Source: Candidatus Moraniibacteriota bacterium
GTDB taxonomy: Bacteria; Patescibacteriota; Minisyncoccia; Moranbacterales; UBA1568
Assembly (NCBI GenBank): GCA_016699425.1
Contig: CP064975.1
Location: 789,698-853,697, forward strand
DNA: 64,000 nucleotides
Reading direction: 5' to 3'
Below, piece after piece: positions 14,183 through 64,000 of the stretch (positions within the stretch are counted from its first letter, which is position 1; each line of letters opens with the position of its first letter). Both the position numbers and the translations under genes were made by a program. The notes beneath the pieces were generated by a model. The model had not been told where the DNA came from. It did not search any database and worked only from the letters and a program-made list of their open reading frames with translations.

Positions 14183-15172
14183 TTAACCCGCGAAAGCGGG
14201 TTTTTCCTTTCTCTCCGTATCACTTGAAATCATCCAGCCCTTCCGGCGAACGAGCCACTGGAAAACAATGAGTCCGATATTCCACGGCAGCATGGACAGT
14301 ATCACGACGAGCATCGCCGCCGGATCACGGAAGAGCGTCTCAGCCAAAAATATCGCGAGGGTGAAATTCATATACGAGAGAGAAAGTGTCACGGTAATCC
14401 GGTCCCGGCGAGAACGCCAGAAACCGATGGCATAGCAAGCGAGATGGAACAAAACGAGCAACCCCGACATGATGAGGAAAGCGGTCAGAGCGTCGCTCCC
14501 GACGAAACCGCTCCGGATGGCTGCGCTGTTTTTCGAAGCAATCGTCCCAATCAGAAGCCATAGGGCGAGAATGGAACTGAAGCGTGAGAGTGACTGCCCC
14601 TTGACGATGAGGTCCCGACCGAATGGAAATGCCCGGACTGCCTGTGCGAGCGCAATCGGTACCGCCATGATAAACAGTAGGGTCCGAAATATCATCCACG
14701 GATCAAAGACTGTCGACTCCCCGCCCAGGAGGCCGAGAATGATCGGCAGCGTGATAACTGAGAGGAGCGATGTCCCTGCCGTCAGAAACAGTGCGAGCGG
14801 AACATTCCCTCGCACCATATCGACGAACAGGGGCGAAGTCATCCCCGCTGGCATCGCCGCCAAGAGCACCAGCGGCATCATGAGGTGCGGGAAGAAAACC
14901 ACTGCCAAAAGATAGACGAAGAGCGGAAAAACTACCAGCCGAAAAAGTGACACAGCCGCAAACAGTTTCATATCTCGCAGTTCGGAAAAAATTGCACGGG
15001 CATCGATCCGGAGTCCGCTCGTGAAAAAAATAAACTGCAGAAGGATACCAGTCCATCCAAAGTACGGCGAAAACCACGTAGGGAAAGCCAAGCCGCAACA
15101 TAAAGCCGCCGCCAGCCCGAGGAAAGGCAGATCATCGAGTCGGCGGTGGACACCGGTTGGCATGGAAGTCAT
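14183..15172 (-). CDS. bile acid:sodium symporter (BASS/AEC-like) family membrane transporter
   Basis: about 9-10 TM segments, family-level call only. Confidence 0.45.
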   Translation of the reverse strand: MTSMPTGVHRRLDDLPFLGLAAALCCGLAFPTWFSPYFGWTGILLQFIFFTSGLRIDARAIFSELRDMKLFAAVSLFRLVVFPLFVYLLAVVFFPHLMMPLVLLAAMPAGMTSPLFVDMVRGNVPLALFLTAGTSLLSVITLPIILGLLGGESTVFDPWMIFRTLLFIMAVPIALAQAVRAFPFGRDLIVKGQSLSRFSSILALWLLIGTIASKNSAAIRSGFVGSDALTAFLIMSGLLVLFHLACYAIGFWRSRRDRITVTLSLSYMNFTLAIFLAETLFRDPAAMLVVILSMLPWNIGLIVFQWLVRRKGWMISSDTERKEKPAFAG

Positions 15173-49963: not shown

Positions 49964-50180
49964 GGGCTGATGCCGATGATGTAGAATCAATCCGCTCCGG
50001 CGGATTTTTTCATAGCTCTTGACAGTGTTTGATGCGAGTAGCATGATGGCCAGGTTGGTCCGGTTACCCAATCTGACGCTTGGCACTCAACCGAGTGAAC
50101 CAAGGAAAGATTTCGTGACAAGATCACCAAGATCTTCGCTACTTAACAACTCAACTACCCCACCCAGGAGAATTTGCATC

Positions 50181-50816
50181 ATGCCGATGAGCTTCTGTTC
50201 TGCCGACGATCTCGCGCTCCTGAAGGAGCTCAGCGCTACCGTGGCGCTTATCCCTTTCGACGGGACCCGTTTCCAACACTACCAGGCCTGCGGGCTCTGC
50301 TCCGATGGAAGCCGCTTTCACATGAAGGGCTATTTCCCGGCGCTCTGCCAACAAAACGGCGGAGGCGATTCGATGATGTTCGAATACAAGACGCACGGCA
50401 CTGCCATGTGCTTTGGCTTGGAAAGTCCGCTCTCGCCAGATGACATCTGGTGGCGCGCCTACTTGCCGAAGTTTCGGCACGCTCAGGATGTGGCTGGCGG
50501 GCAAATCAAGCAGTTCAATTTCGTCCACCACTGGCCCTGCCGCGCCGCGCTCGACGAGGGTATTTCCCTGGAGCATTCCATCCTACTCGCCCTCATGAGC
50601 AAGACTCGGCTGAAACGCGCGGGTGTCTTCCCTGAAGTGGCTATCCTGATGTGGGCCGACACTGCTCCCGGCCACCATGAACTGTCACGAGTCAAAATCG
50701 ACCCGTATATCCAGTGGATGACCGCGCATCGTCCCGGGCTGCTCCCGCTCTGGCAACGCCACGATCAGCTTCTGGCGCTCGAATTGCCCGGATCGAAGCT
50801 TCAAGCAGCAGCCTAG
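50181..50816 (+). CDS. Cys-containing hypothetical protein
   Basis: ATG 50181 with AGGAG 11 nt upstream; upstream TTG start less likely. Confidence 0.4.
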   Translation: MPMSFCSADDLALLKELSATVALIPFDGTRFQHYQACGLCSDGSRFHMKGYFPALCQQNGGGDSMMFEYKTHGTAMCFGLESPLSPDDIWWRAYLPKFRHAQDVAGGQIKQFNFVHHWPCRAALDEGISLEHSILLALMSKTRLKRAGVFPEVAILMWADTAPGHHELSRVKIDPYIQWMTAHRPGLLPLWQRHDQLLALELPGSKLQAAA

Positions 50817-50913
50817 CCTCCAAGACGAGACACGAACCAGACACTATGAAGACACCAACCGATCAACGATCGGACGGTGTTCTTTTTTTATCCAACCGAA
50901 ATACAACAAGATG

Positions 50914-51468
50914 CTACACTGCTGACAGTGAGACTCCAGCTGGCGGAGTTTGAGAATCCAGAGATTTGCTTTTGAGAAAGATCCAGACACCGGCCGCCGT
51001 GAGCCCAGTGAAGGCGATGAGAGACCAGTCAGCGATCGAAAGCCCGATGAGCGTCCAATCAACCGTCGCGCAATTCCCCGTCCCACCGAGCGCAAAGACG
51101 ACATCATCGATGAATGATCCGAAAGAGACCGCGCAACCCTCAGTGGCATCGTGGGCGACCGGAAAGCGCTGTAGTATGACATTGCGAAACGCTACCAGCC
51201 AGCCGAGGAAAGCAAAGACAGCAACCACCGCGCCGGACACGCGCACACTGAAGCGTGGCCACCAGGCCATGTATCCCACGAGTGCCGAGAGGCCGACCAA
51301 AGCATAGCCGAAACGCTGGACGATGCAGAGCGGACAGGGAGTGAGTCCGATCACCCGGACGAGAATCATGGCAAAGATGAGAAGTGCTGCGCAATACAGC
51401 GCGATGAGGAGGAGGAGCGTCTTCGGGTTACGGAGCGCTTCAAGCCCCTTCGAAACAATTCGGTTCAT
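50914..51468 (-). CDS. disulfide bond formation protein B-like (DsbB family)
   Basis: 4 TM, CPLC pair in first loop and second Cys pair (GCAV...GNCAT) in second loop. Confidence 0.7.
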   Translation of the reverse strand: MNRIVSKGLEALRNPKTLLLLIALYCAALLIFAMILVRVIGLTPCPLCIVQRFGYALVGLSALVGYMAWWPRFSVRVSGAVVAVFAFLGWLVAFRNVILQRFPVAHDATEGCAVSFGSFIDDVVFALGGTGNCATVDWTLIGLSIADWSLIAFTGLTAAGVWIFLKSKSLDSQTPPAGVSLSAV

Positions 51469-51583
51469 AAATAAATCGACACAGATGAACGTATACCCCT
51501 ATAAGTATAGCAGCCAAAGGAACTGAAAAAGAAGAGGTGGCCCGGAATCATCAGGGTCACCTATCTCAGGAAAGCTAGTAATC

Positions 51584-51916
51584 TCAGCGTCGCTGCGCTA
51601 TCTCCGCATAAAAAAGCAGTGCGAGTGCAGCGATTACGCTCATCTGTAAGGCTGGCCCAAGCAGACCAATTAGGTCAGCAGGCGCTTCTCCTCGTGGATA
51701 GAGTATCGCCAAAAGGAGGACACCGTTATAGGCCACTGCATACTTCAGTAGCTGATCAGCGTCCTGAGAACAGAAAACGGTTTTAAGTCGGCTCCAGGAA
51801 CGGGCTATAAACTTCGGCCCAAACCGGGTTTCAATCAAGATCACGATCAGCACCGTGACCAGAACCATTATAATGCCGATCACCAACACGGCAAAGAGTT
51901 GCCAGAGACTGACCAT
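51584..51916 (-). CDS. hypothetical membrane protein
   Basis: 3 predicted TM helices. Confidence 0.4.
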   Translation of the reverse strand: MVSLWQLFAVLVIGIIMVLVTVLIVILIETRFGPKFIARSWSRLKTVFCSQDADQLLKYAVAYNGVLLLAILYPRGEAPADLIGLLGPALQMSVIAALALLFYAEIAQRR

Positions 51917-52111
51917 GATGGACCTCCAATATGTGGTCAGGTTGAGGAAAAGAACGTAGCTCTAGGATAACACAGCCCACTACCACTTTACAGTGTTTCT
52001 GTCAAGTTTTACTGATTGATGACACCAGTCTTATGGCTTTAAATAGCAATAAACTAAACACAGTTGGAAATCTCCCATCCAAGAAAAAGTTTCTATTTAC
52101 CCATTCTCCTA

Positions 52112-52342
52112 TTACATCGCCGACGCTGAGCTTTCAGACGCACACATGCGGCAATTCGCCTTGTGTGTCGCGAGCTCAAAGATCGCTGACGCACCGACGA
52201 GCACATATACCACCTTGGCAAGCATCGATGACATACCACCGAGGAGACTGGCGACGAGATCTGTCTCGAGCAATCCGACCGAGAGCCAGTTCAGCCCACC
52301 CACGACCAAGAGCAAAAACGCGACCATGTGAAGTTGTTTCAT
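52112..52342 (-). CDS. DUF378 family membrane protein
   Basis: VGGLNWLSVGL...YVLVGASAIFEL. Confidence 0.7.
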   Translation of the reverse strand: MKQLHMVAFLLLVVGGLNWLSVGLLETDLVASLLGGMSSMLAKVVYVLVGASAIFELATHKANCRMCASESSASAM

Positions 52343-52470
52343 AAGAATAGTATTAGATTGAATAGGTCTAGTACGTAGAGACCGACCGAAGGCTAATCCC
52401 TCCCTACGCCCCTATTGTACTCCTGAAAACTTCCTTTTTGGATTTTCCGTCAAGCACAGTCCGAGAAAAG

Positions 52471-52752
52471 TTATTTCTGACTAATTGTTCCTCGCTCACC
52501 TTTTCGCAGAGAAATATCGACATCCAGCAGTGTATCTCCGAGGTTTTTTTCGAGCAACGGTTTTAGATCATCGAGCGCTTTATTGTAAACGGAGTTGCCC
52601 ACGACTTGCAGGAAGAAATCCAGAATGTTTCCAGCAGCAACGACTCCTATCTTCTCATTTCGTTCTTCAGCGAAATAAGCAATTATCTCATCGATAACCA
52701 AGCGACGCCTTGCATCCGACAACACATCCCAATCGCGTTTTACCTCACCCAT
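52471..52752 (-). CDS. DUF2164 family protein
   Basis: family-level resemblance of N-terminal region. Confidence 0.55.
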   Translation of the reverse strand: MGEVKRDWDVLSDARRRLVIDEIIAYFAEERNEKIGVVAAGNILDFFLQVVGNSVYNKALDDLKPLLEKNLGDTLLDVDISLRKGERGTISQK

Positions 52753-52791
52753 ATACCCTTTTCAACAACAAATCTGATTAGCGCACTACTT

Positions 52792-53442
52792 CTACTTCGG
52801 CATCTTCAGGACATCGACGACGCGCCCATTGATGACGAAGTTGTCATCCGGCGTGAGAAAAATCGGCTGATGACGTTTGTCCGTCGACTCCGGCATGAGC
52901 GCGATAGTCCGACCGTCGACCGAGCGATAGGTTTTTACGGTGGCGAGCCCGTCGATCACGACCAGCACGCGGTCCCCGCTCTTGTAGTCCTTCACATCGG
53001 CGTCGACGAGGATGAAGTCACCGTTCTGAATTGTTTTCCCATTCACCTTAGCTCGATTCATGGACGTCCCCGATACCTGAACGGCAAAGACATTGTGATC
53101 CTTCACGAGTCGCTTCGAAACACGGAGATACCCCTCGACATACTGGTCCGCAAACATGGTCGCTGCACCAGCACTCGCCGCACCAAAGACCGGAATCTGG
53201 ACAAAGTTATCCGAGCTCACACCCTTCAGGAGGATACCCCGGTCCTCGCTCGTCCGCTCAATATAGCCCTTATTCTCGAGCGCATTCAGATAGAGGAAGA
53301 AACTTCTCAGACTTTTCAGATTGAGCCCGAGCTTGCCGCTCTCTTCTTTGATTTCACGCACGGTCGGCATTTCGCCGTGCTCGGTGAAGAACTGCTTGAT
53401 CGCCTGGAGCACAATCCGCTGCTTTTGGGTGAGGATTTCCAT
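52792..53442 (-). CDS. lexA: LexA repressor (wHTH + S24 peptidase)
   Basis: MEILTQKQRIVLQAIK wHTH; cleavage AG, Ser in VSGTSM, Lys in KVNGK; ATG 53442; TTGACA-N16-TATACT upstream (53471-53498, minus strand). Confidence 0.85.
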   Translation of the reverse strand: MEILTQKQRIVLQAIKQFFTEHGEMPTVREIKEESGKLGLNLKSLRSFFLYLNALENKGYIERTSEDRGILLKGVSSDNFVQIPVFGAASAGAATMFADQYVEGYLRVSKRLVKDHNVFAVQVSGTSMNRAKVNGKTIQNGDFILVDADVKDYKSGDRVLVVIDGLATVKTYRSVDGRTIALMPESTDKRHQPIFLTPDDNFVINGRVVDVLKMPK

Positions 53443-53509
53443 ATGTTTGTTTACTCTACTTACACTATAGAGTATACAACTGGTTCGGAGGGTGTCAACT
53501 GTCCAGAAT

Positions 53510-54373
53510 TTAGAACAACTCCCCCACCCAATCCGGACTAACGATCGTCTGGCCATCGGCGCGGAAGACAAGGTATGTCGCGGCCAGTGCCCTGGCAAGC
53601 GTCGGAAATTGCTCCGGCGGAGCGAAGAAGAGTCCCGAGGTCATGCAGTCGGCCGCCCATGCATCTGGTGCGACCGCCGCGCAGCCGACGACTGTCTCGA
53701 CGCTTTTCCGTGCGCCCATATCGACGAGGTGATGCCACTTCCCAAACCGCCGCCGGAAGCTGTCAGAAACAGCCAGTCCTCGGTTGCAAAGCTCGACGAT
53801 CCCTGCTGCGACATCGGGTTTCCCGGGATACTCGATCGCCACGCGCCATGGCTGGCCATCGGTCTTGGTCGTCGCAACCATATCGCCCCCTCCATCGACG
53901 ATGAAATGTCCGTACCCCGCGGTACGGATGAGATCGGCAATCCGATCGATACAGTACCCCTTGCCGATGCCACCGAGATCAAAGGCCACCGGACCATCAA
54001 GTGTGAGTACTTCACCGTCAATTGACCATATGGGCAATGCCTCGCCGTATTCGACTGGTCGCACACCTGACTGTGCACCATAGCCTGCACCCTCGAGCAC
54101 GCCACCGACAATCGGATCATAGACACCACCCGTCAGCTGGCGCAAAAGCGCGGCTCGTTCGAGGAGCCGGGCGAACTCTGATGAAACTGGGTAGCTGCCG
54201 GCGGCCACTTCACGATACGCATTCACTTCCGATCCCGGGAGAAAGCGCGAAAAGCGGGACTCGAAGTCCCGCGCATAGCCGATAATCGTTTCATCCAAAC
54301 GCTCTGGGAGAGACTCGGCATCGATCACGATCGACCAGGCCGTCCCCAGTCCCTGGAAATCGATTGTCTGCAT
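53510..54373 (-). CDS. apbE: FAD:protein FMN transferase (ApbE family), no signal peptide
   Basis: DLGGIGKGY and downstream ApbE blocks; N-terminus MQTIDFQGLGTAW lacks signal/lipobox. Confidence 0.8.
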   Translation of the reverse strand: MQTIDFQGLGTAWSIVIDAESLPERLDETIIGYARDFESRFSRFLPGSEVNAYREVAAGSYPVSSEFARLLERAALLRQLTGGVYDPIVGGVLEGAGYGAQSGVRPVEYGEALPIWSIDGEVLTLDGPVAFDLGGIGKGYCIDRIADLIRTAGYGHFIVDGGGDMVATTKTDGQPWRVAIEYPGKPDVAAGIVELCNRGLAVSDSFRRRFGKWHHLVDMGARKSVETVVGCAAVAPDAWAADCMTSGLFFAPPEQFPTLARALAATYLVFRADGQTIVSPDWVGELF

Positions 54374-54383
54374 TGCTTATCTG

Positions 54384-54818
54384 TTAGAGCTGGCTCTTCA
54401 GCTTGTCGATGACGCTATTGAACGCATCGGTTGTCATCGATGATTTGCCGATCCGGTCCACTGCTGTGAGTTCGGAAAGTTTCTTGCCCTTAATGACCGC
54501 TGCAAGTCCCTGGGCGAACTCGATCTGATGCTCATCGGCTTCATTCGTCTCGACCGCTACTTCACGGACATCGGTGATGACACCTTCTGCATCCAGGACA
54601 AGCGTAAACCGCACACTGTCATACCCGTCATTCGGCACGGGGTAGCCCACCTCGGCACTCACCTCTCGCGGCTTATCAACAGCGACCTTGGTCACCGCTA
54701 TCGGCGTTTCCTCGGTGCGCGCGGCTGGGAGAAGCTTCAACGTGTACCGACAGTACACAAACGCCGTGAGCACGAGCACGACTGCGATAGCGATGATCCC
54801 CTTGGGTATCTTTTGCAT
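54384..54818 (-). CDS. membrane-anchored FMN-binding-domain-like protein, paralog of 19897..20394
   Basis: C-terminus AVDRIGKSSMTTDAFNSVIDKLKSQL aligns to FMN_bind consensus; N-terminal TM. Confidence 0.55.
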   Translation of the reverse strand: MQKIPKGIIAIAVVLVLTAFVYCRYTLKLLPAARTEETPIAVTKVAVDKPREVSAEVGYPVPNDGYDSVRFTLVLDAEGVITDVREVAVETNEADEHQIEFAQGLAAVIKGKKLSELTAVDRIGKSSMTTDAFNSVIDKLKSQL

Positions 54819-54930
54819 AGGTTTATTTTTTTCTTACACCCGAGAAAAGAAAAATCTCTCGAGATCTCTGCCTTTATGGTACCACAACAGGCTCTTTCTC
54901 CGCCAAGACCCAGCGTACATCTGTCGAACG

Positions 54931-55839
54931 TTACTTCCAATATACCTGAGACGTCGTCACGATTTCCTTCCACGGCCCGTCCGGCACGGCGTCCGCGACA
55001 ACAAAGCGCCAATCGACGATATCGATATCCTTCAGTCCCAGACACTGACTCGCAGCCGGGGAAAGGTCGAGACCGGCGTGCTTATTGGTCTTGCTCTCGG
55101 GAGTGGCTGTGCCAAAGACATAGGCGCTGTCGTTTTCCTTGAAGGGTCCCACGTCTTGCCACTGAGCGTAGCAGGTTTTCTCACCCTTGGTCACTTCGAT
55201 CCACCGGTTCTTGAGCATGGATTCATCATCCTTCCACGTCCGGTCCTTGGCCCAGGGGATGATCGAAGCAGCGTCTTTCTTACGCTTTCCCTTGGAATCG
55301 AAGTCATTGTACGGCAAAGCAAAATAGAATGGATTCTCCTGTGGCGTAAACTTGGCCGGGAAGTTGCCATTCCGTTTGTCCGGATCGTCTACACCCCCAA
55401 AATGTTTGACCCATTTCTCATCCCACGCACTCGGGAGATTGGAGATATCCTTATTGTCGTCCCCCGCCTCCTCGCCCACCCAGAAAAGTGTCGTCGTCAC
55501 ATCCTGATGGAGAGGGTACGGCGGGTCCTCTGCAACTGTGTCGTCTCCAATTCCTTCAGGTTTCGGCAGAGCCGTCTCGGCCGGTGTGACCAATGAGGGT
55601 GCCATCTCGACAGGACTCATGGGGGTGTCTATGTTCTCTTCCGTCAGCGTCTCTTCCGGTGTCGCGCTTCCAACGTTCGCTCCAACAGAAAGCACCGCTT
55701 CTCCTCCTTGAGGGGCTGTCTCACTCTCCGTATCTTCCGAACTCGAAATCTTTTTCCCGACAGCGACAAACGCGAGGGACGTCCCAATGATGATGGAACT
55801 CAACAACATGAGTACTCCCACGCGATGTAAACTTCTCAT
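54931..55839 (-). CDS. secreted protein with RlpA-like double-psi beta-barrel domain (putative)
   Basis: signal/TM then ...WIEVTKGEKTCYAQWQDVGPF...AGLDLSPAASQCLGL resembles DPBB/RlpA. Confidence 0.45.
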   Translation of the reverse strand: MRSLHRVGVLMLLSSIIIGTSLAFVAVGKKISSSEDTESETAPQGGEAVLSVGANVGSATPEETLTEENIDTPMSPVEMAPSLVTPAETALPKPEGIGDDTVAEDPPYPLHQDVTTTLFWVGEEAGDDNKDISNLPSAWDEKWVKHFGGVDDPDKRNGNFPAKFTPQENPFYFALPYNDFDSKGKRKKDAASIIPWAKDRTWKDDESMLKNRWIEVTKGEKTCYAQWQDVGPFKENDSAYVFGTATPESKTNKHAGLDLSPAASQCLGLKDIDIVDWRFVVADAVPDGPWKEIVTTSQVYWK

Positions 55840-56063
55840 GCAGTATTTTTAGTGTTTAGGGGAGACTGTTCTCTCCAGAACCTCTCAACATTCAAACAAA
55901 CACGCGGCCCATGAAACGGGCGGAAGGAACTCTATTGTACCAGTATAATCGGCGTCCGACAAAGTCCGCATATCCTACGCTGAGAGAGATATCCACTCCC
56001 CGCCACCGAGATAGAAAGTGCAGATCTGAGCGACAAAAAATCCCCTTGGCGGGGATAATTGGC

Positions 56064-56347
56064 ATCAGAGCTCTTGAGAGGAGAGGAAGGCGTGGTACTG
56101 CATCGTCTTCCTCTCGAATAGGTCGGCTAGACAGGAGCAGGACTCCCATACTAACCTCCCTCCAGTGCTAGCTGTACGGTGTTCGACCTCGCCCACCCCA
56201 TCCGTTTAGAGGAGGAAGTGAGGAAACCAAACCTCTCCATACCATTTTCCGAACGAAGACCCATTCGGTGCTGTCCAACTCACGCCAAGCGACGTGAGGG
56301 CACTGGAAGAACTGACTTAGAGAGCATGCTCTCTCAAGAATGCTGAT
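56064..56347 (+). other. noncoding unit bracketed by about 20-bp inverted repeats (ATCAGAGCTCTTGAGAGG ... GCTCTCTCAAGAATGCTGAT)
   Basis: same bracket sequences as units at 62666-62862 and 62880-63136; lies in 680-bp ORF-free divergent region. Confidence 0.35.
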
Positions 56348-56517
56348 GATCGAGAAAATATTCTCGAACTCCAGGGTAACAGACCATCGCCGATCGGTCA
56401 ATCCCGCAGGATTCTGACACCACCTAAAAAGCTGATACAATATCCTTGACTGAGAATACTGCAAGCCTGCGGAATAACCGGGTGTGTGATTTCTTCACTT
56501 ACATAATCAGCATCGAT

Positions 56518-57465
56518 ATGAATAAACCACTTGTCGTAGCCGGTGTTGTTCTTACCCTCTTCTCGCTCACCGCGCTCGCTCTCGCCTGGTGGTCAGCCTA
56601 TCGGGTGACACAAATACAGAAAACAATGAACACGGCTGACAAAAATCCAACACTCGATTCACACACGCCGTCAGGCGATGACTCACCCACACCTGTTCTT
56701 GATCAATCGCAAGATGCTCTGGTAATGACCAAGCCAATAACAGATGAAAAATATACTCTCGTAACGCTCGGTGACCTCTCGGTCAATCGGCAAGCCTACA
56801 ATGGCCACCCGATTGAAATCATCGACTATATGGACACGGGACCCCTTCCCTCACCCAATGGGACGAAAAAGTATACTGAGTACATCAAAATCCTCTCGCC
56901 AGATTATGTCCGAGGGCTTGACCTGGTCTATCCTCCATTCACGACCGATGATCCGGCTCGCTATGCCCGTGTGGCGCCGCTCTACCGCGGCGAGCAACGA
57001 GTGAGCATCAAGGGGAAATTTGTCATCGACCTCATGAAGACACCGACGCGTCCGATAGAAAACGACGTCATCGTGGTTGATCACTTCGACATTCTCCCCT
57101 TCCCAGAGCCGGAAAAGGGAGTGATCACGAAAGAAATTTTCTCCCAGATGATCGAGGATGGCACAATCGCATCGCTGAATCGGAAACGCATCACCTATGA
57201 AGGCGAGTACGGCTCCGGTTTCGAAGTGTCGCTCCTCGATAAACTGATTTGGGCGAACTTCATTGAAACCGAAATGGGCAATGCCGTCGATGAACTCGAA
57301 CGATTCATGCGTACTCACTCCGAAATGAAGAAAGAAGATGGGCAAATGAAGTCCAAAGTCCGAGTCACCGGTGTGCTCTATGCCACCCCCGGACAGCGTT
57401 ATGGCCACCTCGGACGCACCCTATATCAGATGATGGTCGACACGGTTGTTTTCCTCGAACAGTAA
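56518..57465 (+). CDS. membrane-anchored hypothetical protein
   Basis: start at MNKPLVVAGVVLTLF (56518). Confidence 0.55.
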   Translation: MNKPLVVAGVVLTLFSLTALALAWWSAYRVTQIQKTMNTADKNPTLDSHTPSGDDSPTPVLDQSQDALVMTKPITDEKYTLVTLGDLSVNRQAYNGHPIEIIDYMDTGPLPSPNGTKKYTEYIKILSPDYVRGLDLVYPPFTTDDPARYARVAPLYRGEQRVSIKGKFVIDLMKTPTRPIENDVIVVDHFDILPFPEPEKGVITKEIFSQMIEDGTIASLNRKRITYEGEYGSGFEVSLLDKLIWANFIETEMGNAVDELERFMRTHSEMKKEDGQMKSKVRVTGVLYATPGQRYGHLGRTLYQMMVDTVVFLEQ

Positions 57466-57684
57466 CGTTCACACCAGACACCCGCCCATCTCCTTCGAAA
57501 TGACGCCCTTCCTGGTACCATACTGCGGCACAAGAATTGCCTCGTGACCCAAAAAGAAAAGCTCCCGATGTCGGTATTCTGACAACTGGGAGCTGAACAC
57601 CTGGTAAGTGACCACGAGGACCGCCCGAGAAGATCCGAATGTACCGACAAAAACGGAAACTCAGCCTGAATCAGGAGAGCTCTC

Positions 57685-58413
57685 TCATGTGGACGCATTC
57701 AGCATGCGCTGCGCCGCCATCCTGACCGCTGTCGGTAGCATCAGCCATTCATACGGCAGCACGATTTCCCGCAGCTTGAGCGCAGCCGCCCTGATGTCAT
57801 ATGTCCCATCGAGGACACCCTGCAACAGCGTAGACGGAATCTCCACTGCTCCCATCAGAAGTGGTGGACCATCGCCCGGTCTCTCCGTGACCTCATGGAC
57901 GGTCGGATAGGTGAAAAAACGGTCGCACCCGAGGCTTTTCTTGCCGCGCCGGATGTGATCGAGCTCCGCCTCGAGAACGTGCTCGTGCACCCGTAGGCCA
58001 TGCATCCCCTGACCCCCGTGAGCATCGATGTCTGCCGGGTGGATGTTGTACATTGGCAGCCCGCATATTGGATAGGCAATGGAGGAGTCAAATGGCACGA
58101 TCACATTGCAGCCAACAAGAAACACGAGGCGACATTGACGGGCCTGAGCTACCCTCGAAAGCTCATTGAGAAATCCGCGTTTTTCGTACGTATACTGAAA
58201 CGACGTACTCCCTACTTCGATGACTACGCTGGGATAGTCGAGATCATTCGCCTTTTCAATGCAACCCGCACCCGGTTTGGTACTCACGAGCACGATCTGC
58301 CCGACTTCCGGGATCTGACCGGCGTGATGAGCCTTCATGATGGAAAACATACCGGTACCATTGCCGGAGGCGATGACCATCAGGTTCACTTCGCCACTTG
58401 TACGCTTGGGCAT
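57685..58413 (-). CDS. formyltransferase family protein (PurN-like)
   Basis: VIASGNGTG N-terminal and NIHP...TVHEVTERPGDGP blocks. Confidence 0.55.
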   Translation of the reverse strand: MPKRTSGEVNLMVIASGNGTGMFSIMKAHHAGQIPEVGQIVLVSTKPGAGCIEKANDLDYPSVVIEVGSTSFQYTYEKRGFLNELSRVAQARQCRLVFLVGCNVIVPFDSSIAYPICGLPMYNIHPADIDAHGGQGMHGLRVHEHVLEAELDHIRRGKKSLGCDRFFTYPTVHEVTERPGDGPPLLMGAVEIPSTLLQGVLDGTYDIRAAALKLREIVLPYEWLMLPTAVRMAAQRMLNAST

Positions 58414-58577
58414 GGGAGCCCTCCTCTCTTGTAATCACAACACTCTATAAACCGGCCTCCCATGAGGAAGGCCACCAAAGAACTAGTCACCGAGTATCGC
58501 AAATTCGGACGTCCCAGTCAAATGGAAATCACCAAGGATCACATCCGATGCGGCTTTCTATTTTTTCCGAGCCGTAT

Positions 58578-58606
58578 TTGACGAGGGAACAAATGTTCCC
58601 TATAAT
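58578..58606 (+). promoter_or_regulatory. sigma70 promoter TTGACG-N17-TATAAT with embedded LexA (Cheo-type) box GGAACAAATGTTCC
   Basis: -35 58578-58583, -10 58601-58606, perfect inverted repeat GAAC-N4-GTTC at 58587-58598 between them. Confidence 0.55.
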
Positions 58607-58625
58607 CAGAGAAGGAAAACCACCT

Positions 58626-59198
58626 ATGGAAACAGCCACCGCCCTCGCCAAAATCCAAGCCTTCTATGAAAAGAGGTGGCGCATGCCGACCGTGCGCGAA
58701 GTCATGTCGCTCATCCGCACTCGATCGATGAAGCAGACAACCGCCCTCATCGAGGGACTCGTCGAGTCCGGTGCGATCGAACGCGACAAGAATGGCAAAC
58801 TCCTCCCGAGTCACCTCTTCGGCAGCATCCGTAAGCTCGGACTCGTCGAAGCTGGTTTCCCCTCGCCCGCCGAAGAGGAGCTCCTCGATACTCTGACGCT
58901 CGACGAGTGGCTCATCCGCCGGCGCGAAGCGACTTACATGCTCGAGATCAAGGGCGAATCGATGATCAATGCCGGTATCCGACCCGGCGACACCGCCCTC
59001 GTCGAACGCGGCCGCGAACCAAAACATGGTGACATCGTCATCGCAGAGGTCGACGGCAAGTGGACGATGAAGTACTACCACGTCGAGTCGCGAGGACGTA
59101 TCGCGCTCGTCCCAGCCAATCCGAAATTCCCGACCATCTACCCGCAAGAAGAACTCCACATTGAGGCAATCGTCACGGCCATCATCCGGAAATACTAA
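58626..59198 (+). CDS. second LexA-like repressor (wHTH + S24 peptidase)
   Basis: IKGESMINAGI (Ser) and KHGDIVIAEVDGKWTMKYY (Lys); start 58626 after AAGGA; 58593 alternative. Confidence 0.8.
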   Translation: METATALAKIQAFYEKRWRMPTVREVMSLIRTRSMKQTTALIEGLVESGAIERDKNGKLLPSHLFGSIRKLGLVEAGFPSPAEEELLDTLTLDEWLIRRREATYMLEIKGESMINAGIRPGDTALVERGREPKHGDIVIAEVDGKWTMKYYHVESRGRIALVPANPKFPTIYPQEELHIEAIVTAIIRKY

Positions 59199-59202
59199 CC
59201 CT

Positions 59203-60513
59203 ATGTCCGCCCCCATCGTTCTGGGGAGATTCCCCCGTGCCATCCTCCACATCGATGGTGATGCTTTTTTCGCGTCATGCGAGCAAGCAAGGAATCCCGA
59301 ACTCCGCGGAAAGCCGGTCATCTGCGGAGCCGAGCGCGGCATCGCCGCGTCGATGAGCTATGAAGCCAAAGCCAAGGGCGTCACCCGTGCCATGCGCCTC
59401 TTCGAAATAAAGAAACTCTGTCCGGACGCGGTCGTCCTCCCCTCCGACTACGAGACGTATTCGCTCCTCTCCAAACGCTTCTACGAAGTCGTCCGCCGCT
59501 ACACATCCGATGTCGAGGAATACGGCATCGACGAATGCTTTGCCGATATCACCGGTTTGCAGCGACCGCACAAGAAAAGCTATGCCGCGATTGCCGCAGC
59601 GATCCAGTCGGACCTCCAGCGCGAGCTCGGCTTCACCTTTTCCATCGGCCTCGCCTCGACCAAAGTCCTCGCCAAGATCGGCTCGAAGTGGGCGAAGCCC
59701 CATGGCCTGACCGCTATCCCGAACAAATATATCCACCGCTACCTCGAGACGCACCCCGCGGGAAATGTCTGGGGCATCGGTCCGCAGACGACCGCGCTCC
59801 TCCAGAAATTCGGTATTCATACCGCGCTCGACTTCGCCCACCGCGACGAAGCCTGGGTGAAACACTACTGCTCGAAACCGTTCCAAGAGATCTGGCACGA
59901 GCTCCGGGGAAAGAGCGTCATGCCGCTCGCGACCGCGCCACGGACCGACCACTCCTCGGTGCAAAAGATGAAGACCTTCACCCCGCCGTCAAACGACCCG
60001 CGCTTCGTCTTTGCCCAGCTCGCGAAAAACATCGAGAGCGCCTGCATGCGCGCGCGGCAGTACCGGCTCGAGGCCAAGCGGGTGTACATCCTGCTCCGGA
60101 CGCAATCGTTCGAGCATCACTCGACCGAGCTCACGCTCTCGCGGCCGACCAATTTCGCCCACGAACTCCTCGACATCGCCCGTCCGGCCTTCGCCGAACT
60201 CTTCCGCCCCGGCACCTTCTACCGCGCGACCATGGTCACGCTCGCCGAGCTCACCGTCCCCGAATCGCAGCCTGATCTCTTCGGTGGATCACTCCGAGTG
60301 GACAACTATCGCCGGCTCTACGAGGGCATCGACCAGGTCCGCGCCAAGTACGGCAAGCACACCATCCATTTCGGCTCGTCATTCATGGCGCACGACGGCG
60401 CACAGCACACGGGCGACCGCGCCGACACCCCCGAGCGCCAGCGCCATCTCCTCAAGGGCGAGACCAAACGCCGCCGCCTCGGCATCCCCATGTTCACCGC
60501 CGAACTCTCCTAA
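59203..60513 (+). CDS. dinB: Y-family DNA polymerase (DinB/UmuC-like)
   Basis: ILHIDGDAFFASCE and GIDECFADITG catalytic motifs; starts 4 nt after LexA-like stop. Confidence 0.85.
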   Translation: MSAPIVLGRFPRAILHIDGDAFFASCEQARNPELRGKPVICGAERGIAASMSYEAKAKGVTRAMRLFEIKKLCPDAVVLPSDYETYSLLSKRFYEVVRRYTSDVEEYGIDECFADITGLQRPHKKSYAAIAAAIQSDLQRELGFTFSIGLASTKVLAKIGSKWAKPHGLTAIPNKYIHRYLETHPAGNVWGIGPQTTALLQKFGIHTALDFAHRDEAWVKHYCSKPFQEIWHELRGKSVMPLATAPRTDHSSVQKMKTFTPPSNDPRFVFAQLAKNIESACMRARQYRLEAKRVYILLRTQSFEHHSTELTLSRPTNFAHELLDIARPAFAELFRPGTFYRATMVTLAELTVPESQPDLFGGSLRVDNYRRLYEGIDQVRAKYGKHTIHFGSSFMAHDGAQHTGDRADTPERQRHLLKGETKRRRLGIPMFTAELS

Positions 60514-60515
60514 CC

Positions 60516-60561
60516 AAAAAAAACCGCCCCGGTTCCCTCCAAGGCGGCTTTCAATTTTTCC
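60516..60561. repeat. 46-nt terminator-like direct repeat A (AAAAAAAACCGCCCCGGTTCCCTCCAAGGCGGCTTTCAATTTTTCC)
   Basis: 39/46 identical to 63187-63232; hairpin CCGCC..GGCGG flanked by A- and T-tracts. Confidence 0.5.
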
Positions 60562-60567
60562 TTTTCA

Positions 60568-61440
60568 TTAGCTTTTCTGAATCAAGCTAACTAGTGCTTT
60601 TACGGAGGACAGCTCTGGCTCCTCAATTTTTTTTGCGTCAATAATCCGCGGAGGTTTAGTATCGTCACTAAAAGTAACATAATAGTAATTGCCCCTATCT
60701 ATAATTCCATGACCAATTTCTTGAGAAGTTGCTGCTTTATATTTCCCTTCAATTGTTTTTTCTTTAATTACCTCAAAACGAACTTCATAATCTGAATCTC
60801 TCCTTTTCCCAAGCGGTGCATGGGAACCAATCCTGATAAGATGCCGCTGACCAACCTCCGTGAAAGGAATGAACTGCGATCCCCTCCCAAGGAGAAAGTT
60901 CCCCTGCTTGTAAGGATTAAGATTAAAGTTCACTAATTTTGAAACGCTTTTGGCCGCCTTTTTTGCCGACCTATCGACAATCCTTGTCTCCTCAGTGCTT
61001 TTTCCCTCCACCCAATGAAGATTAAATCCAAATCGAATTTTCTTTTTTTCTCTTAAGTAATCCTTCCATAATCCCTGATGCTTAACATCATAACCATCCC
61101 GAGTCTTCCATTTATCTTTGCCGAATGGTTTAGCCCACCTATATACGCTACTATTTGCGCTATCAACTACATACCTAGAATCACTAAGAACAGTAATCGA
61201 AGTAATTCCAAGTTGAGAGATTTCCTTGGTATTCCTATTTATCCACTTCAGCGCATTAACCAATGCCTGTAATTCCATCGCCCCACTTGTTCCGCCAGAA
61301 TAAGGAAACTTAATCTCCCTATTTGGTAGATTAAGAAACTTGGGATACACGACAAGCATCGCACATCCAACCATTTCACCTGGATTGGTGATTGCTGATC
61401 CGTCTATATAAATCACCAGTTCATCTTCGCTATCCAACAT
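60568..61440 (-). CDS. RNase H (type 1) domain protein with 140-aa uncharacterised C-terminal domain
   Basis: DEDD residues in IYIDGS / MELQAL / LSDSRY / IVDRSA; start at ATG 61440; AT-rich. Confidence 0.7.
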   Translation of the reverse strand: MLDSEDELVIYIDGSAITNPGEMVGCAMLVVYPKFLNLPNREIKFPYSGGTSGAMELQALVNALKWINRNTKEISQLGITSITVLSDSRYVVDSANSSVYRWAKPFGKDKWKTRDGYDVKHQGLWKDYLREKKKIRFGFNLHWVEGKSTEETRIVDRSAKKAAKSVSKLVNFNLNPYKQGNFLLGRGSQFIPFTEVGQRHLIRIGSHAPLGKRRDSDYEVRFEVIKEKTIEGKYKAATSQEIGHGIIDRGNYYYVTFSDDTKPPRIIDAKKIEEPELSSVKALVSLIQKS

Positions 61441-61463
61441 GTCGAGCCAATATAGTTTGGGAT

Positions 61464-61545
61464 GCACCAAGACGGGAATCGAACCCGTACGATCCAAAGA
61501 TCATCTTCTTGTAGAATTTCAAAAAAATTAGAAACTCTAGTAGGA
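61464..61545 (-). other. tRNA-like T-arm/acceptor fragment (GTACGGGTTCGATTCCCGTCTTGGTGC) plus long AT-rich hairpin; not a complete cloverleaf by eye
   Basis: perfect T-arm ACGGG-TTCGATT-CCCGT on minus strand; no matching 5' acceptor strand found. Confidence 0.3.
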
Positions 61546-61630
61546 AGATGTGTCTACCATTCCACCACTCGAGCAAAGCTTTTACCCATAATACTATCTC
61601 CAGCTAAATCAATATTAAGCAGAAAAAGAG

Positions 61631-62206
61631 TCAGGACAGTATCTTTTCGTTACGCTTTTGAAGTAAATATCCCGCTATACCTAAAATAATTGGCATGGCT
61701 AGTCCCATAATTACAATTGTATCCACTCGTTCATTTATTCGAACATACGCCCCTTCTAAATCCTCAACACTTTCATTCAAAACATCCTGTTTATCCTTCA
61801 ATGTTCTTGAGGTTATTGCCTTATCAGTATCATAAAGTATTGTCTCTTCGATTGAGTTCTGCCTTGCCTCCAAACCAGTTACTCGCTGATTTACCAAGGC
61901 AAGTGATGTGCCCTGGTTATTTTTCAGCACCTCCCGCAATGATAACAGCTCTTTCTCAAGAGCCAGGTTTTTCTTATTTAGATTTTCAATTTTTTCCAAG
62001 ATCTCATCCTTATTCCTTATCAAAGAGAATGGGAAACTATCAATTCTTGTCTGATAGAGTAGGTAGCCAATAGAAAGGACGGCGTAGACTATAGTGAGAC
62101 TGAGAACGAGACTCTGTTTTCTCTTCCTTCTTTCTTCTAAAGACTTCTGAAGAGCCAAGTACTCAGAGAAAGACTCAGATAGCTTTTTTTGTGAGGAATA
62201 GGCCAT
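61631..62206 (-). CDS. hypothetical coiled-coil membrane protein
   Basis: 2 TM helices flanking coiled-coil; AT-rich. Confidence 0.5.
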   Translation of the reverse strand: MAYSSQKKLSESFSEYLALQKSLEERRKRKQSLVLSLTIVYAVLSIGYLLYQTRIDSFPFSLIRNKDEILEKIENLNKKNLALEKELLSLREVLKNNQGTSLALVNQRVTGLEARQNSIEETILYDTDKAITSRTLKDKQDVLNESVEDLEGAYVRINERVDTIVIMGLAMPIILGIAGYLLQKRNEKILS

Positions 62207-62209
62207 ACC

Positions 62210-62416
62210 TTATTTCTTTGGGAAAGCTTCATCAATCGCTTCAGCAACAATATCGAGCTCCTTTTCCAGTTCAGTTGAAATCTCCTCCTCAGTAACAATT
62301 TTTTTTTCAATAAGGATCTTCTCTATTGCATTCAATCTCGCATTTCTCGCAAAATCAAAGGCCGATCTTGGACCAACCTTTGAATTTATTCTATCTAAAA
62401 ATTCTTGCAGCTTCAT
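62210..62416 (-). CDS. small hypothetical protein (68 aa)
   Basis: 3-nt gap to downstream ORF. Confidence 0.4.
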   Translation of the reverse strand: MKLQEFLDRINSKVGPRSAFDFARNARLNAIEKILIEKKIVTEEEISTELEKELDIVAEAIDEAFPKK

Positions 62417-62665
62417 ATCTTTTCTTTTGTGATAAAAACCCGGCCGAAACCGTGAGTCCTAAGTAACTTCCTTGTAGAGGGAAGATAGTCTAAAAACCTA
62501 GTTCGGTCAAGCATACAAAAAACCAGTCTTGCGACTGGTTTCGTGCCTTACACGGTATCAGAAGGAAATTCCTTGATCCTTGGATATTCGTGCGGAGAGT
62601 GCTGATCATATAAAGTGGGACCTCTTCACGGAGTCGCCCACCAAAGGGCTGTCCCACCGACAATA

Positions 62666-63136
62666 ATCAATACTCTTGAGAGAGAAGAAGTCTGGGTGTG
62701 ACCATGACTTCTCCGAGGAAGAAAAAGTCCGACGAGAGCAAGCGGCGCAGAGGGTAACGCGTCGCAGGTGGAGGAGAACGGAGAAGCTCTTCGTCGGCCC
62801 TGACGACACTGGATGCCAGGGGAAATTTTCAGGAGCGCATTCGCTCTCTCAAGAGAACTGATATTCGATTGTAAACTGCATCAATACTCTTGAGAGAGAA
62901 GGAATCGAAGCGGTTGCGACGATTCCCTCTCGAGTGGGTTGCCGATCACAGATTGCCTGCGACCGGGCCCCCGGCGCCTTGCCCGCAGATACCGGGAAGT
63001 ATGCTGCAAGCCTCAGTCTGCCCGAGAGTGGTAGGGTCCCCCTGGGTTGGGGTGGTGAGAGGGACCGCTCGGAGCGACGACGACCTTGCGCCGGAAAGAA
63101 CAAAAGAGAACCCGAGGCTCTCTCAAGAATATTGAT
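62666..63136 (+). ncRNA. candidate structured RNA, possibly RNase P RNA (rnpB), built from two tandem inverted-repeat-bracketed units
   Basis: 5' TCAATACTC/TTGAGAGAG pairs with 3' CTCTCTCAA/GAATATTGA (P1/P2-like); P3-like hairpin GAAGTC..GACTTC; GAGGAAGAAAAAGTCCGAC (cf. GAGGAAAGUCCGGGC); GGGTAACGC; GGTGAGAGGGAC; AGAGAACCCGAGG before 3' stem (cf. ACAGAACCCGGCUUA); no credible ORFs. Confidence 0.35.
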
Positions 63137-63186
63137 CTGTGAAATAGCGTAGGGAGAGTATCGCAAATCCGGCTATCTAAGTCAAC

Positions 63187-63232
63187 AAAAAAAACCACCC
63201 AGGATCACTCCGAGGCGGCTTTCAATTTTTCC
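63187..63232. repeat. 46-nt terminator-like direct repeat B
   Basis: AAAAAAAACCACCCAGGATCACTCCGAGGCGGCTTTCAATTTTTCC, last 20 nt identical to repeat A. Confidence 0.5.
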
Positions 63233-63261
63233 GTATCCCGCGAACACGAGACGATCAAGCG

Positions 63262-64000
63262 CTATTTCCTCCCAATCAGAAGCATGACCAACTTCACCAT
63301 TTTTTCCTTGTCTCTCGGATGGCTTTCAGCAATGAGGAGCGTGATCGCCGTGAGCGCCTCGGGCGTAAGGCGTGTGGCATCGAGTAGCCGAGTCATGTTC
63401 AGAAACCACACGAAAGCATACGCACCCGTGCGTTTGTTCCCATCCACAAATGGATGATTTTTCACGATGAAATAGAGAAGATGCGCTGCCTTGGCTTCGA
63501 CACTCGGGTAGACATCTCGGCCACCGATCGCCTGCATCACATTTCCGACAATCCCCTCCAGTCCTTGTTTGCCCCGCTCCTGTGCGAACAGTTCTGTGGC
63601 TTCATGTTTCTTCAGTAGTTCGGCTTTCAGGATACTGACGGCCTCGGCCAATCGAGCGCCGGTCAAGATCACCTTCTTCTTTGTCGGCTTGGCAACATCA
63701 AACACCTCCCGGTCATAAGCATCGAGAGATACCCAGGTATCGGCAAACGATCGCACGAGCTCGAGGATACTCCCCGTATCGGTTTTCATCCCGGCTGGCA
63801 GCAAAGCCCTCACGTCAGCGACGGCTTGCGAGAACGCCTCATAATTCTTCCCGATCCGTGAACGATTGATAGTGTAACCCTCCACGAGATGACGGCGCAG
63901 CACACCGGTCGCCCACCTCCGAAACTGGGTCGCTTTCTTGGAATTAACACGGTAACCCACAGAAATGATCACATCCAGGTTGAAATACTCTACTTGGTAG
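63262..64000 (-). CDS. RhuM-family / Fic-DOC domain protein, 5'-partial (continues past window end)
   Basis: ...YQVEYFNLDVIISVGYRVNSKKATQFRRWAT RhuM core; HPFVDGNKRTGA Fic motif; frame open to position 64000. Confidence 0.75.
   Translation of the reverse strand, partial: YQVEYFNLDVIISVGYRVNSKKATQFRRWATGVLRRHLVEGYTINRSRIGKNYEAFSQAVADVRALLPAGMKTDTGSILELVRSFADTWVSLDAYDREVFDVAKPTKKKVILTGARLAEAVSILKAELLKKHEATELFAQERGKQGLEGIVGNVMQAIGGRDVYPSVEAKAAHLLYFIVKNHPFVDGNKRTGAYAFVWFLNMTRLLDATRLTPEALTAITLLIAESHPRDKEKMVKLVMLLIGRK

Follow-up and report, generated by a model that had tools for sequence, protein, structure and literature searches.

The lexA2-polymerase cassette

The window analysed here is a 64-kb stretch of DNA from Candidatus Moranbacteria/Moraniibacteriota (Patescibacteria), and all positions given below without a locus name follow its numbering. 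Besides a canonical lexA gene (lexA1), it contains a cassette formed by a second lexA-like gene, lexA2 (58626..59198, + strand; 190 residues; stop codon at 59196-59198), and by a gene encoding a 436-residue Y-family DNA polymerase with IMS and IMS_C domains (59203..60513, + strand), whose ATG at 59203 lies 4 nt past lexA2. An earlier note, made from the sequence alone, had described this region as a LexA-DinB cassette with a Cheo-type SOS box inside a consensus promoter, and its coordinates and sequence were recovered unchanged when re-read from the window.

The promoter of the cassette lies at the end of the intergenic region 58414-58625. It is of the sigma-70 type, matches 11 of the 12 consensus positions, is the best promoter between 52000 and 61000, and consists of a -35 element TTGACG (58578..58583, + strand) and a -10 element TATAAT (58601..58606, + strand; located by a promoter scan) separated by a 17-nt spacer. 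This spacer is occupied by a putative operator, the inverted repeat AGGGAAC-AAAT-GTTCCCT (58584..58601), assigned from the sequence and its comparative conservation, which overlaps the first base of the -10 element and whose core, GAACAAATGTTC at 58587-58598, is the sole GAAC-N4-GTTC within the window. The element had been called a perfect palindrome; its 7-bp arms are indeed fully complementary, but the AAAT centre is not self-complementary, and it is therefore an inverted repeat with a spacer, which for brevity is termed the palindrome below. The lexA2 leader measures about 13-19 nt, the position of the transcription start site being an estimate, and a Shine-Dalgarno-like AAGGA (58612..58616, + strand) can be read from the sequence 9 nt ahead of the ATG.

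LexA2 has a winged helix-turn-helix (wHTH) at residues 1-62 (58626..58811, + strand), assigned from an AlphaFold2 model and a profile alignment to the N-terminal domain of LexA, and an S24 domain (Pfam, E-value 7.8e-26). The model, with a mean predicted local distance difference test (pLDDT) score of 78.9, places the S24 beta-domain after residues 70-95, which are predicted to be disordered, and its wHTH comprises helices 3-17, 23-29 and 35-48 and strands 51-53 and 59-61 at a pLDDT of about 89-91. The recognition helix, RSMKQTTALIEGLV, spans residues ~33-46 (58722-58763, + strand). The predicted self-cleavage site Ala76-Gly77 (58851..58856, + strand), the S24 nucleophile Ser112 within GESM (58959..58961, + strand) and the general base Lys149 within WTMKY (59070..59072, + strand) are invariant in the family. 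After the cleavage site, and up to 58916 on the + strand, runs a UmuD-type arm, GFPSPAEEELLDTLTLDEWLI, which aligns to the C24-G25 FPSPA region of UmuD, AGFPSPAEEEL of LexA2 matching CGFPSPAADY of UmuD, and which is also invariant. The segment 72-100 (LG.VEAGFPSPAEEEL.DT.TLDE.LI) is the most conserved of the family, with a top-residue frequency of 0.81 against 0.72 in the S24 core and 0.51 in the wHTH.

When the LexA2 model was compared with known structures, the top Foldseek matches were full-length LexA structures (first Thermotoga maritima 3k2z, template modelling score 0.66), followed by UmuD' and LexA C-terminal domains. In agreement with this result, a LexA2 family profile built from 48 sequences aligned end to end with 3k2z (95.5 bits; LexA residues 10-195), whereas its alignment with E. 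coli UmuD (95.5 bits) was confined to the S24 domain; isolated LexA C-terminal domains scored 72-79 bits. The Pfam LexA_DNA_bind family (PF01726) is sub-threshold in LexA2 (E-value 0.024) and significant in the homologues P0083 and P0094. Among the NCBIfam models the best one was UmuD (NF007621/PRK10276; 108.7 bits, narrowly under the cutoff of 110), and the LexA model TIGR00498 gave 93.0 bits, under its equivalog cutoff of 110.95, so that by curated thresholds LexA2 is neither a LexA equivalog nor a member of the UmuD subfamily. It has the wHTH, the Ala-Gly site and the Ser/Lys dyad of the LexA architecture, and it departs from stand-alone UmuD by its 62-residue wHTH, the UmuD form being represented by relatives of 128-136 residues. 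As judged from these comparisons, LexA2 is built like a LexA whose cleavable half resembles UmuD. Thus, the claim that the window encodes a second protein with a LexA fold holds, whereas its description as a second LexA paralog holds for the fold and not for the S24 half, which scores higher as UmuD. The identity between LexA2 and LexA1 is 25% overall, and their recognition helices are unrelated.

The catalytic residues of the polymerase, D18/D20 (59254-59262, + strand) and D110/E111 (59530-59535, + strand), are intact and, together with the IMS/IMS_C domains and the 4-nt gap, bear out the proposed operon with a catalytically intact Y-family polymerase. Three elements of its C-terminal region were found to be conserved in an alignment of 70 sequences (the window and 69 orthologues). 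The QPDLF motif (60268..60282, + strand; conserved as Q.+LF) is presumably a beta-clamp-binding motif, given the established QLxLF motifs. Next to it, NYRRLYEGIDQVRAKYGKHTIHFG (60304..60375, + strand) resembles the RecA-NT/DUF4113 motif and keeps the pattern D....+GKH+..+G+S (YxxxDxxxxKYGKHT); it scored 16.7 bits against DUF4113, sub-threshold with respect to the cutoff of 24, with the RecA-NT-like part as the one recognizable portion of that domain, and was set by hhalign on RecA residues 7-28. The third element is a C-terminal tail, GETKRRRLGIPMF (60457..60495, + strand), conserved as GE+.R.R++IP. According to Timinskas and Venclovas (PMC6511836), who defined the RecA-NT motif, such a motif together with a conserved tail is the layout of the polymerases that bind a small subunit (UmuC, YqjW/UvrX), and the C-terminal tails of UmuC and YqjW bind that subunit. 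The best NCBIfam models for the polymerase were those of Pol IV, at about 200-230 bits, although it remained under the cutoffs of all ten (top score 232.5 versus a cutoff of 371); the UmuC model NF002955 gave 136.9 bits versus a cutoff of 431, and the best match in the PDB was the Pol IV structure 7yll (158.7 bits). Curated cutoffs therefore place the polymerase among neither the DinB equivalogs nor the UmuC proteins. The DinB label that it had received is justified for its DinB-like core, but not with regard to the Pol IV equivalog cutoffs or to its UmuC-style C-terminal organization.

Conservation and probable recognition of the operator

A scan of 185,579 species genomes for the cassette returned at least 570 loci, and 80 of them, referred to by L numbers, were kept for comparison. 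The spread of these species takes in Patescibacteria, Nitrospirota, Omnitrophota and others, and the LexA2 family amounts to about 79 clusters at 50% identity (E-value <=1e-30, among 1.84 billion representatives). A polymerase gene lies downstream of the lexA2 homologue in 77 of the 80 loci, from many phyla, mostly at a distance of 2-40 nt. The cassette is thus common, and its presence in a tiny genome is less notable than had been implied. The best related contig is JBATNG010000027, whose LexA2 is 98% identical and which shows synteny across 52149-60529.

The window contains a single GAAC-N4-GTTC where 1.44 are expected, and GGAAC-N4-GTTCC with up to two mismatches gave 23 matches against 31 expected; with counts at chance level, a function of the box cannot be argued from the window alone. 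Orthologous loci, in contrast, totalling 1.145 Mb, contain 63 exact boxes where 15 are expected, and 47 of these 63 lie within 150 bp upstream of a lexA2 homologue, where 0.16 would be expected. An exact box is present within 400 bp upstream in 57 of the 80 loci and a box with one mismatch in 8 more, and most of the remaining loci carry the symmetric variants GTAC-N4-GTAC or GGAC-N4-GTCC, in which the dyad is kept. Nearly all loci with a box have the layout TTGACA, 3 nt, box, 2 or 3 nt, TATAAT, and about 75 of the 80 have TTGAC at the corresponding position. These data support the proposal of a Cheo-type box between the -35 and -10 elements, which turns out to be conserved across phyla. The earlier note had named a random frequency of the box across the genome as an outcome that would refute its idea; although the frequency in the window is literally random, the idea is not refuted thereby, since no gene outside the cassette appears to belong to the regulon.

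The compared promoters also differ in the distance to the start codon. In about 30 of the 80 cassettes (L013, L018, L025-L027, L035-L037, L040, L045, L049, L051, L054, L056, L060, L064 and others), the -10 element ends about 6-8 nt ahead of the start codon, the box lying at -25 to -29 from the ATG, which implies from sequence a leaderless or near-leaderless lexA2 mRNA. Conversely, L008 (3274-3550 and 4124-4352), L009 and L010, from one Moranbacteria subclade, have a leader of 150-280 nt and a lexA2-polymerase spacer of 170-230 nt; the translated leader and spacer segments of L008 have a short motif in common and might be inserted repeats, and no conserved extra small open reading frame (ORF) was found in these long-leader cassettes (L008, L009). 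On a Kiritimatiellia contig (L068, 9962-12164), a lexA2-like gene is followed by another gene and then by recA, with no polymerase gene directly after it, and a near-box, GAACGATTGTTT, adjoins the start codon.

The sequence of the operator was found to vary together with that of helix 3 of the protein encoded next to it. Eleven loci, the window among them, combine the operator GGGAAC-N4-GTTCCC with S-M-[KR]-Q in the helix. In about 43 loci GTGAAC...GTTCAC is paired with S-[KT]-N-[AS]-V, and in about 8 TAGAAC...GTTCTA is paired with S-K-[AS]-A-V-x-Y; 5 loci have (C/A)GGAC...GTCC and S-K-G-G-V-S, and 4 have GTGTAC...GTACAC and S-[PI]-N-[AS]-V-T. The changes between classes are symmetric in both half-sites.

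Some Moranbacteria have orthologues of 128-136 residues without the wHTH, which share about 80% identity with the S24 half of LexA2 (L104 4001-4393, L105 4001-4393, L107 1351-1761, L012 9989-10378 and L014 715-1101). These HTH-less forms occupy the same neighbourhood, with purine-synthesis genes flanking, a Fic gene downstream and the orthologous polymerase gene directly after. Their promoters still have TTGAC and a TATAGT at the 17-nt spacing. The palindrome, however, retains 1-4 of its 6 arm pairs in all 5 independent HTH-less lineages, versus 6 of 6 in all 10 HTH-bearing Moranbacteria-type relatives. The HTH-less proteins retain the Ala-Gly site, the Ser and the Lys, and the ratio of nonsynonymous to synonymous substitution rates (dN/dS) of 0.04-0.13 beside the polymerase indicates purifying selection at the sequence level. 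Their promoters read TATAGTGTAAGT/TATAGTGTAATT and match the LexA1-type motif described below over 9-10 nt of its first repeat (TAGTGTAAG/T). A capture of the HTH-less forms by LexA1 was considered and rejected, since TATAGTG is already the ancestral -10 region in HTH-bearing relatives and the second repeat is missing; the resemblance is a weak lead only.

LexA1 is a protein of 216 residues (52792..53442, - strand) with LexA_DNA_bind and S24 domains, the cleavage site A91-G92 and the catalytic residues S127 and K170. It passes the TIGR00498 cutoff (113.3 versus 110.95 bits), and its homologues are 74-98% identical across Moranbacteria. Its promoter, TTGACA-N16-TATACT (53498-53471, - strand), was compared with those of L001, L002 and lexA1-bearing loci derived from metagenomes. 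Past the -10 element lies a direct repeat, TAGTGTAAG-TAGAGTAAA (53467-53449, - strand), a candidate LexA1 operator with the consensus [AG]TGTAAG-N3-[AG]TGTAAAC and a 9-bp period. TGTAA-N5-GTAAAC is exact at a fixed position in 13 lexA1 loci (window, L001, L002 and L081-L093 compared), and of 15 matches to TGTAAG-N4-GTAAA in 1.36 Mb, 14 fall in lexA1-type promoters, one of them upstream of a Fic/RhuM-like gene in L001; in L001 the repeat was noted at 14211-14229 (- strand). No GAAC-N4-GTTC was found upstream of lexA1 in the window, in L001 and L002, or in the metagenome loci, as had been claimed for the window. By its sequence, LexA1 appears to use a direct-repeat operator, TGTAAG-N4-GTAAAC, unlike that of the cassette, and this footprinting supports the suggestion that the two repressors recognize different operators.

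Since the operator tracks helix 3, the palindrome decays with the loss of the HTH, and the LexA1 promoters differ, the sequence data point to the cis-encoded LexA2 as the protein that recognizes the palindrome of its own promoter, and an autoregulation of LexA2 through this operator is indicated at the same level. The paper of Sanchez-Osuna et al. 2017 is said to deal with the SOS network of Patescibacteria, and the cassette or either motif may already stand there. The same authors' group subsequently placed that LexA motif among the direct repeats (PMC7739468), a description that would suit the LexA1 motif and not the palindrome.

The extent of the regulon was examined in 349 kb of Moranbacteria-type DNA and, for the other loci, in 10-kb flanks. 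The full box GGGAAC-N4-GTTCCC, with 0-1 mismatch, was not found outside the cassette promoter in those 349 kb, and no box was seen upstream of two recA genes in related loci (including L030), which are too few to generalize; recA itself was not found in the window. The regulon is thus probably the cassette alone, as far as sequence can tell, in agreement with the self-contained module that had been proposed.

Proposed mechanism and alternative explanations

Taken together, these results suggest that the two genes form a translesion-synthesis operon that represses itself, is inducible by DNA damage and is separate from the main SOS circuit, a reading to which we assign a probability of about 0.78. 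According to this model, a LexA2 dimer would bind AGGGAAC-N4-GTTCCCT within the promoter spacer by means of its LexA-type wHTH and keep RNA polymerase off the promoter. Upon DNA damage, RecA filaments on single-stranded DNA would stimulate self-cleavage of the S24 domain at Ala76-Gly77 via Ser112/Lys149, repression would end, and lexA2 and the polymerase gene, which are probably translationally coupled, would then be expressed. We consider this core of the model quite likely. In an additional step, for which we see roughly even odds, the product Gly77-Tyr190 would act as a UmuD'-like accessory subunit and bind the polymerase through the GFPSPAEEEL arm and the polymerase C-terminal tail, and RecA would dock on the RecA-NT-like motif to yield a Pol V-like mutasome. 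DNA binding, RecA-dependent cleavage and mutasome formation are steps that we infer.

A more far-reaching proposal, whose chances we place just short of even, is that one polypeptide does both jobs in a widespread family beyond Acinetobacter, and that the HTH-less descendants record a step from a LexA-like to a UmuD-like protein. This dual role is suggested by the UmuD-like S24 half with its highly conserved segment 72-100, by the retention beside the polymerase of HTH-less forms that are unable to repress, by the motif architecture of partner-binding polymerases found in the polymerase and, by analogy, by the precedent of UmuDAb in Acinetobacter. Several points weigh against the interpretation as a whole or in part. 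The box shows no enrichment in the window, the limits of the regulon rest on at most 349 kb and the 10-kb flanks, and the taxonomic labels of many contigs from metagenome-assembled genomes are unreliable. The five operator/helix classes are probably clades that represent few independent events. The strongly conserved residues around the cleavage site may be needed for nothing but cleavage, and the matches of the polymerase to DUF4113 (E-value 0.0074) and RecA-NT (P 0.038) are sub-threshold and weak. The catalytic core is, by sequence, DinB-like and not UmuC-like, and E. coli DinB works without UmuD'.

Among the alternatives, the one that we take most seriously, while giving it somewhat less than an even chance, is that LexA2 is only a repressor and that the polymerase works alone as a Pol IV/DinB enzyme, as in the lexA-dinB arrangement of Geobacter or with the LexA2 of Pseudomonas putida, the likeness to UmuD being a phylogenetic legacy. 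The full LexA fold would fit such a protein, as would the DinB-like catalytic core with Pol IV as its best NCBIfam and PDB matches and the weakness of the RecA-NT and DUF4113 evidence, and lexA-polY operons with a purely regulatory LexA are known (PMC6511836; PMC3901139). Against it speak the HTH-less forms, which are unable to repress and are yet kept beside the polymerase under strong purifying selection with cleavage site and dyad intact, the arm past the cleavage site as the most conserved segment of the family, and the conserved C-terminal tail of the polymerase.

The other alternatives concern the palindrome and the origin of the cassette. GAAC-N4-GTTC is the classic LexA box in many Gram-positive-type lineages (Bacillus type), and LexA1 is present in the same genomes, so that the palindrome could be the operator of the host LexA1, with the cassette in the general SOS regulon and LexA2 not binding its own promoter. 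This is improbable, however, in view of the lexA1 promoters of at least 13 loci, which have another conserved motif and no box, of an operator class that, in one phylum after another, follows the helix 3 encoded in cis, of a palindrome that decays exactly where the cis-encoded HTH was lost, and of the unrelated recognition helices in two proteins of such low identity. Slightly less probable still is that the lexA2-polymerase pair is a prophage or mobile element in which a CI/ImmR-like repressor is accompanied by a cargo polymerase. S24 repressors are common on phages and on integrative and conjugative elements, a 2.66-kb low-GC insertion (60530-63186) lies just downstream, and the cassette occurs in many phyla; but none of the adjacent genes is an integrase, phage or conjugation gene, the wHTH has the LexA-type and not the CI/XRE fold, and 72,556 plasmids and 50,697 phages yielded no close match, all being under 60% identity with UmuD as the best, and UmuD/SamA, at 39% identity, as the nearest plasmid-borne relatives of LexA2. 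With no close plasmid or phage relatives and a conserved chromosomal neighbourhood (purine-synthesis genes and Fic gene) in L001, L002 and L104-L107, a mobile or prophage origin was rejected. Finally, a palindrome present in the promoter spacer by mere chance is next to impossible: a single copy in 64 kb does agree with the chance expectation, but 57 of 80 orthologous promoters conserve the box at the same position, the 47 boxes near lexA2 homologues far exceed the 0.16 expected, and the decay in HTH-less forms also refutes it.

As regards the surroundings of the cassette, the divergent neighbour upstream is a PurN-like formyltransferase gene (57685-58413), and lexA2 is not followed by imuA, imuB or dnaE2, the next gene past the polymerase being a convergent RNase H-like ORF. 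Between these two convergent genes, a GC-rich hairpin with a 14-pair stem (60519..60552), with a T-run on the - strand and followed on the + strand by CTTTCAATTTTT, is likely, by its sequence, a bidirectional terminator. Rfam and tRNA scans of 50000-64000 found no RNA genes. The region 60530-63186, of about 46% GC versus about 54%, lies between the cassette and a Fic-like gene and holds a 309-residue RNase H-domain protein (60568-61497, - strand) and two small ORFs; the sister contig L001 has other genes in its place, so that it is a variable or inserted region. It contains two tandem units of about 200-260 nt (62666-62862 and 62880-63136) with 19-nt inverted repeats at their ends (ATCAATACTCTTGAGAGAG / CTCTCTCAAGAnnAnTGAT); the second unit folds at -104.4 kcal/mol (z -2.8), neither unit has an Rfam match, and the units (62666-63136) could be elements resembling miniature inverted-repeat transposable elements or structured RNAs. 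Another repeat array was observed in L023 (15213-15831), where seven tandem 103-bp repeats each carry a tRNA 3'-end-like sequence (GGTTCGAATCC...).

Relation to known systems

In Acinetobacter baumannii/baylyi, the closest functional precedent cited above is UmuDAb (UmuD1389), a homologue of UmuD that is extended at its N-terminus by a DNA-binding part and has its A-G cleavage site at a long distance from that end (PMC8565304). It represses error-prone polymerase genes and self-cleaves after DNA damage (PMC8565304; PMC13062779), and once cleaved it supports mutagenesis of the Pol V type together with UmuC2015 (PMC13062779). LexA2 likewise combines a UmuD-like S24 domain with an N-terminal DNA-binding part and has an Ala-Gly site (A76-G77, A83-G84 in UmuDAb), and its repressor activity is deduced from this architecture and from the operator data. 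In contrast, UmuDAb lies outside an operon with its polymerase, has true UmuC proteins as partners, needs the co-repressor DdrR and governs about 159 genes in a host without LexA, whereas LexA2 has a LexA-type wHTH, heads a two-gene operon with a DinB-like polymerase and coexists with a canonical LexA; no ddrR-like gene is adjacent to the cassette, and no small divergent ORF is conserved across the compared loci.

A second LexA with its own operator and a very small regulon is described for the lexA2-imuA-imuB-dnaE2 operon of P. putida and for LexA2 of Xanthomonas (PMC3901139; PMC3789691; PMC9578287). As in those systems, the second LexA here would head and autoregulate an error-prone polymerase operon through an operator unlike that of LexA1; unlike in them, where the cargo is imuA, a catalytically dead ImuB and DnaE2, the cargo here is one active polymerase of the Y family, and the S24 domain of the repressor resembles UmuD. 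In Geobacter sulfurreducens (Jara et al. 2003, as reported in PMC6511836), lexA is co-transcribed with a Y-family polymerase gene and autoregulated, and LexA does not bind recA; the operator is a larger palindrome, GGTT-N10-AACC, and an ImuB-C gene lies between lexA and polY, unlike the 4-nt gap without a third gene in the window. Leptospira also has two LexA regulons with different operators, the second LexA heading a mutagenesis operon, and lexA duplications often go with motif divergence (Erill group, PMC8565304).

With E. coli UmuDC/Pol V the cassette has in common an S24 protein with a GFPSPA arm encoded directly upstream of a Y-family polymerase with a RecA-NT-type motif and a C-terminal tail, self-cleavage of UmuD being what activates the accessory subunit. 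E. coli UmuD, however, lacks a DNA-binding domain, with LexA repressing it in trans, and UmuC belongs to a distinct polymerase clade. The operator has the core dyad and spacing of the Cheo/Bacillus-type box and, like it, overlaps the promoter, but it differs from that of Bacillus LexA in its flanks (GGGAAC...GTTCCC), in the recognition helix that goes with it and in being restricted to the cassette in the DNA examined. The streptococcal HdiR-UmuC pair and the non-canonical LexA-dinB of Bacteroidetes also join a self-cleaving S24 repressor to an error-prone polymerase in a minimal unit of the SOS type (PMC8565304; PMC3901139); those repressors have an XRE/CI-type HTH in hosts without LexA, whereas here the wHTH is of the LexA type and LexA1 coexists. 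The cassette differs from the known second-LexA mutagenesis operons by its sole Y-family cargo, the UmuD-like half of its repressor, its HTH-less derivatives and its spread over uncultured phyla. Beyond the earlier note, the analysis brings evidence for self-recognition, shows how widely the family is spread and points to a UmuD-like repressor that probably has a dual role.

If the dual role is true, the behaviour of UmuDAb that was considered unique to A. baumannii (PMC13062779) would be a general design in many uncultured phyla, and the autoregulated hybrids that bear an HTH, together with the UmuD-like proteins that lack one and whose operator has decayed, would form a natural series on which the kinship of UmuD and LexA could be tested. 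The five operator/recognition-helix classes provide a specificity table for LexA-type winged-helix domains. As for the organism itself, these results suggest that bacteria of the candidate phyla radiation, with their small genomes, retain inducible mutagenesis as a compact, self-wired unit insulated from the LexA1 circuit.

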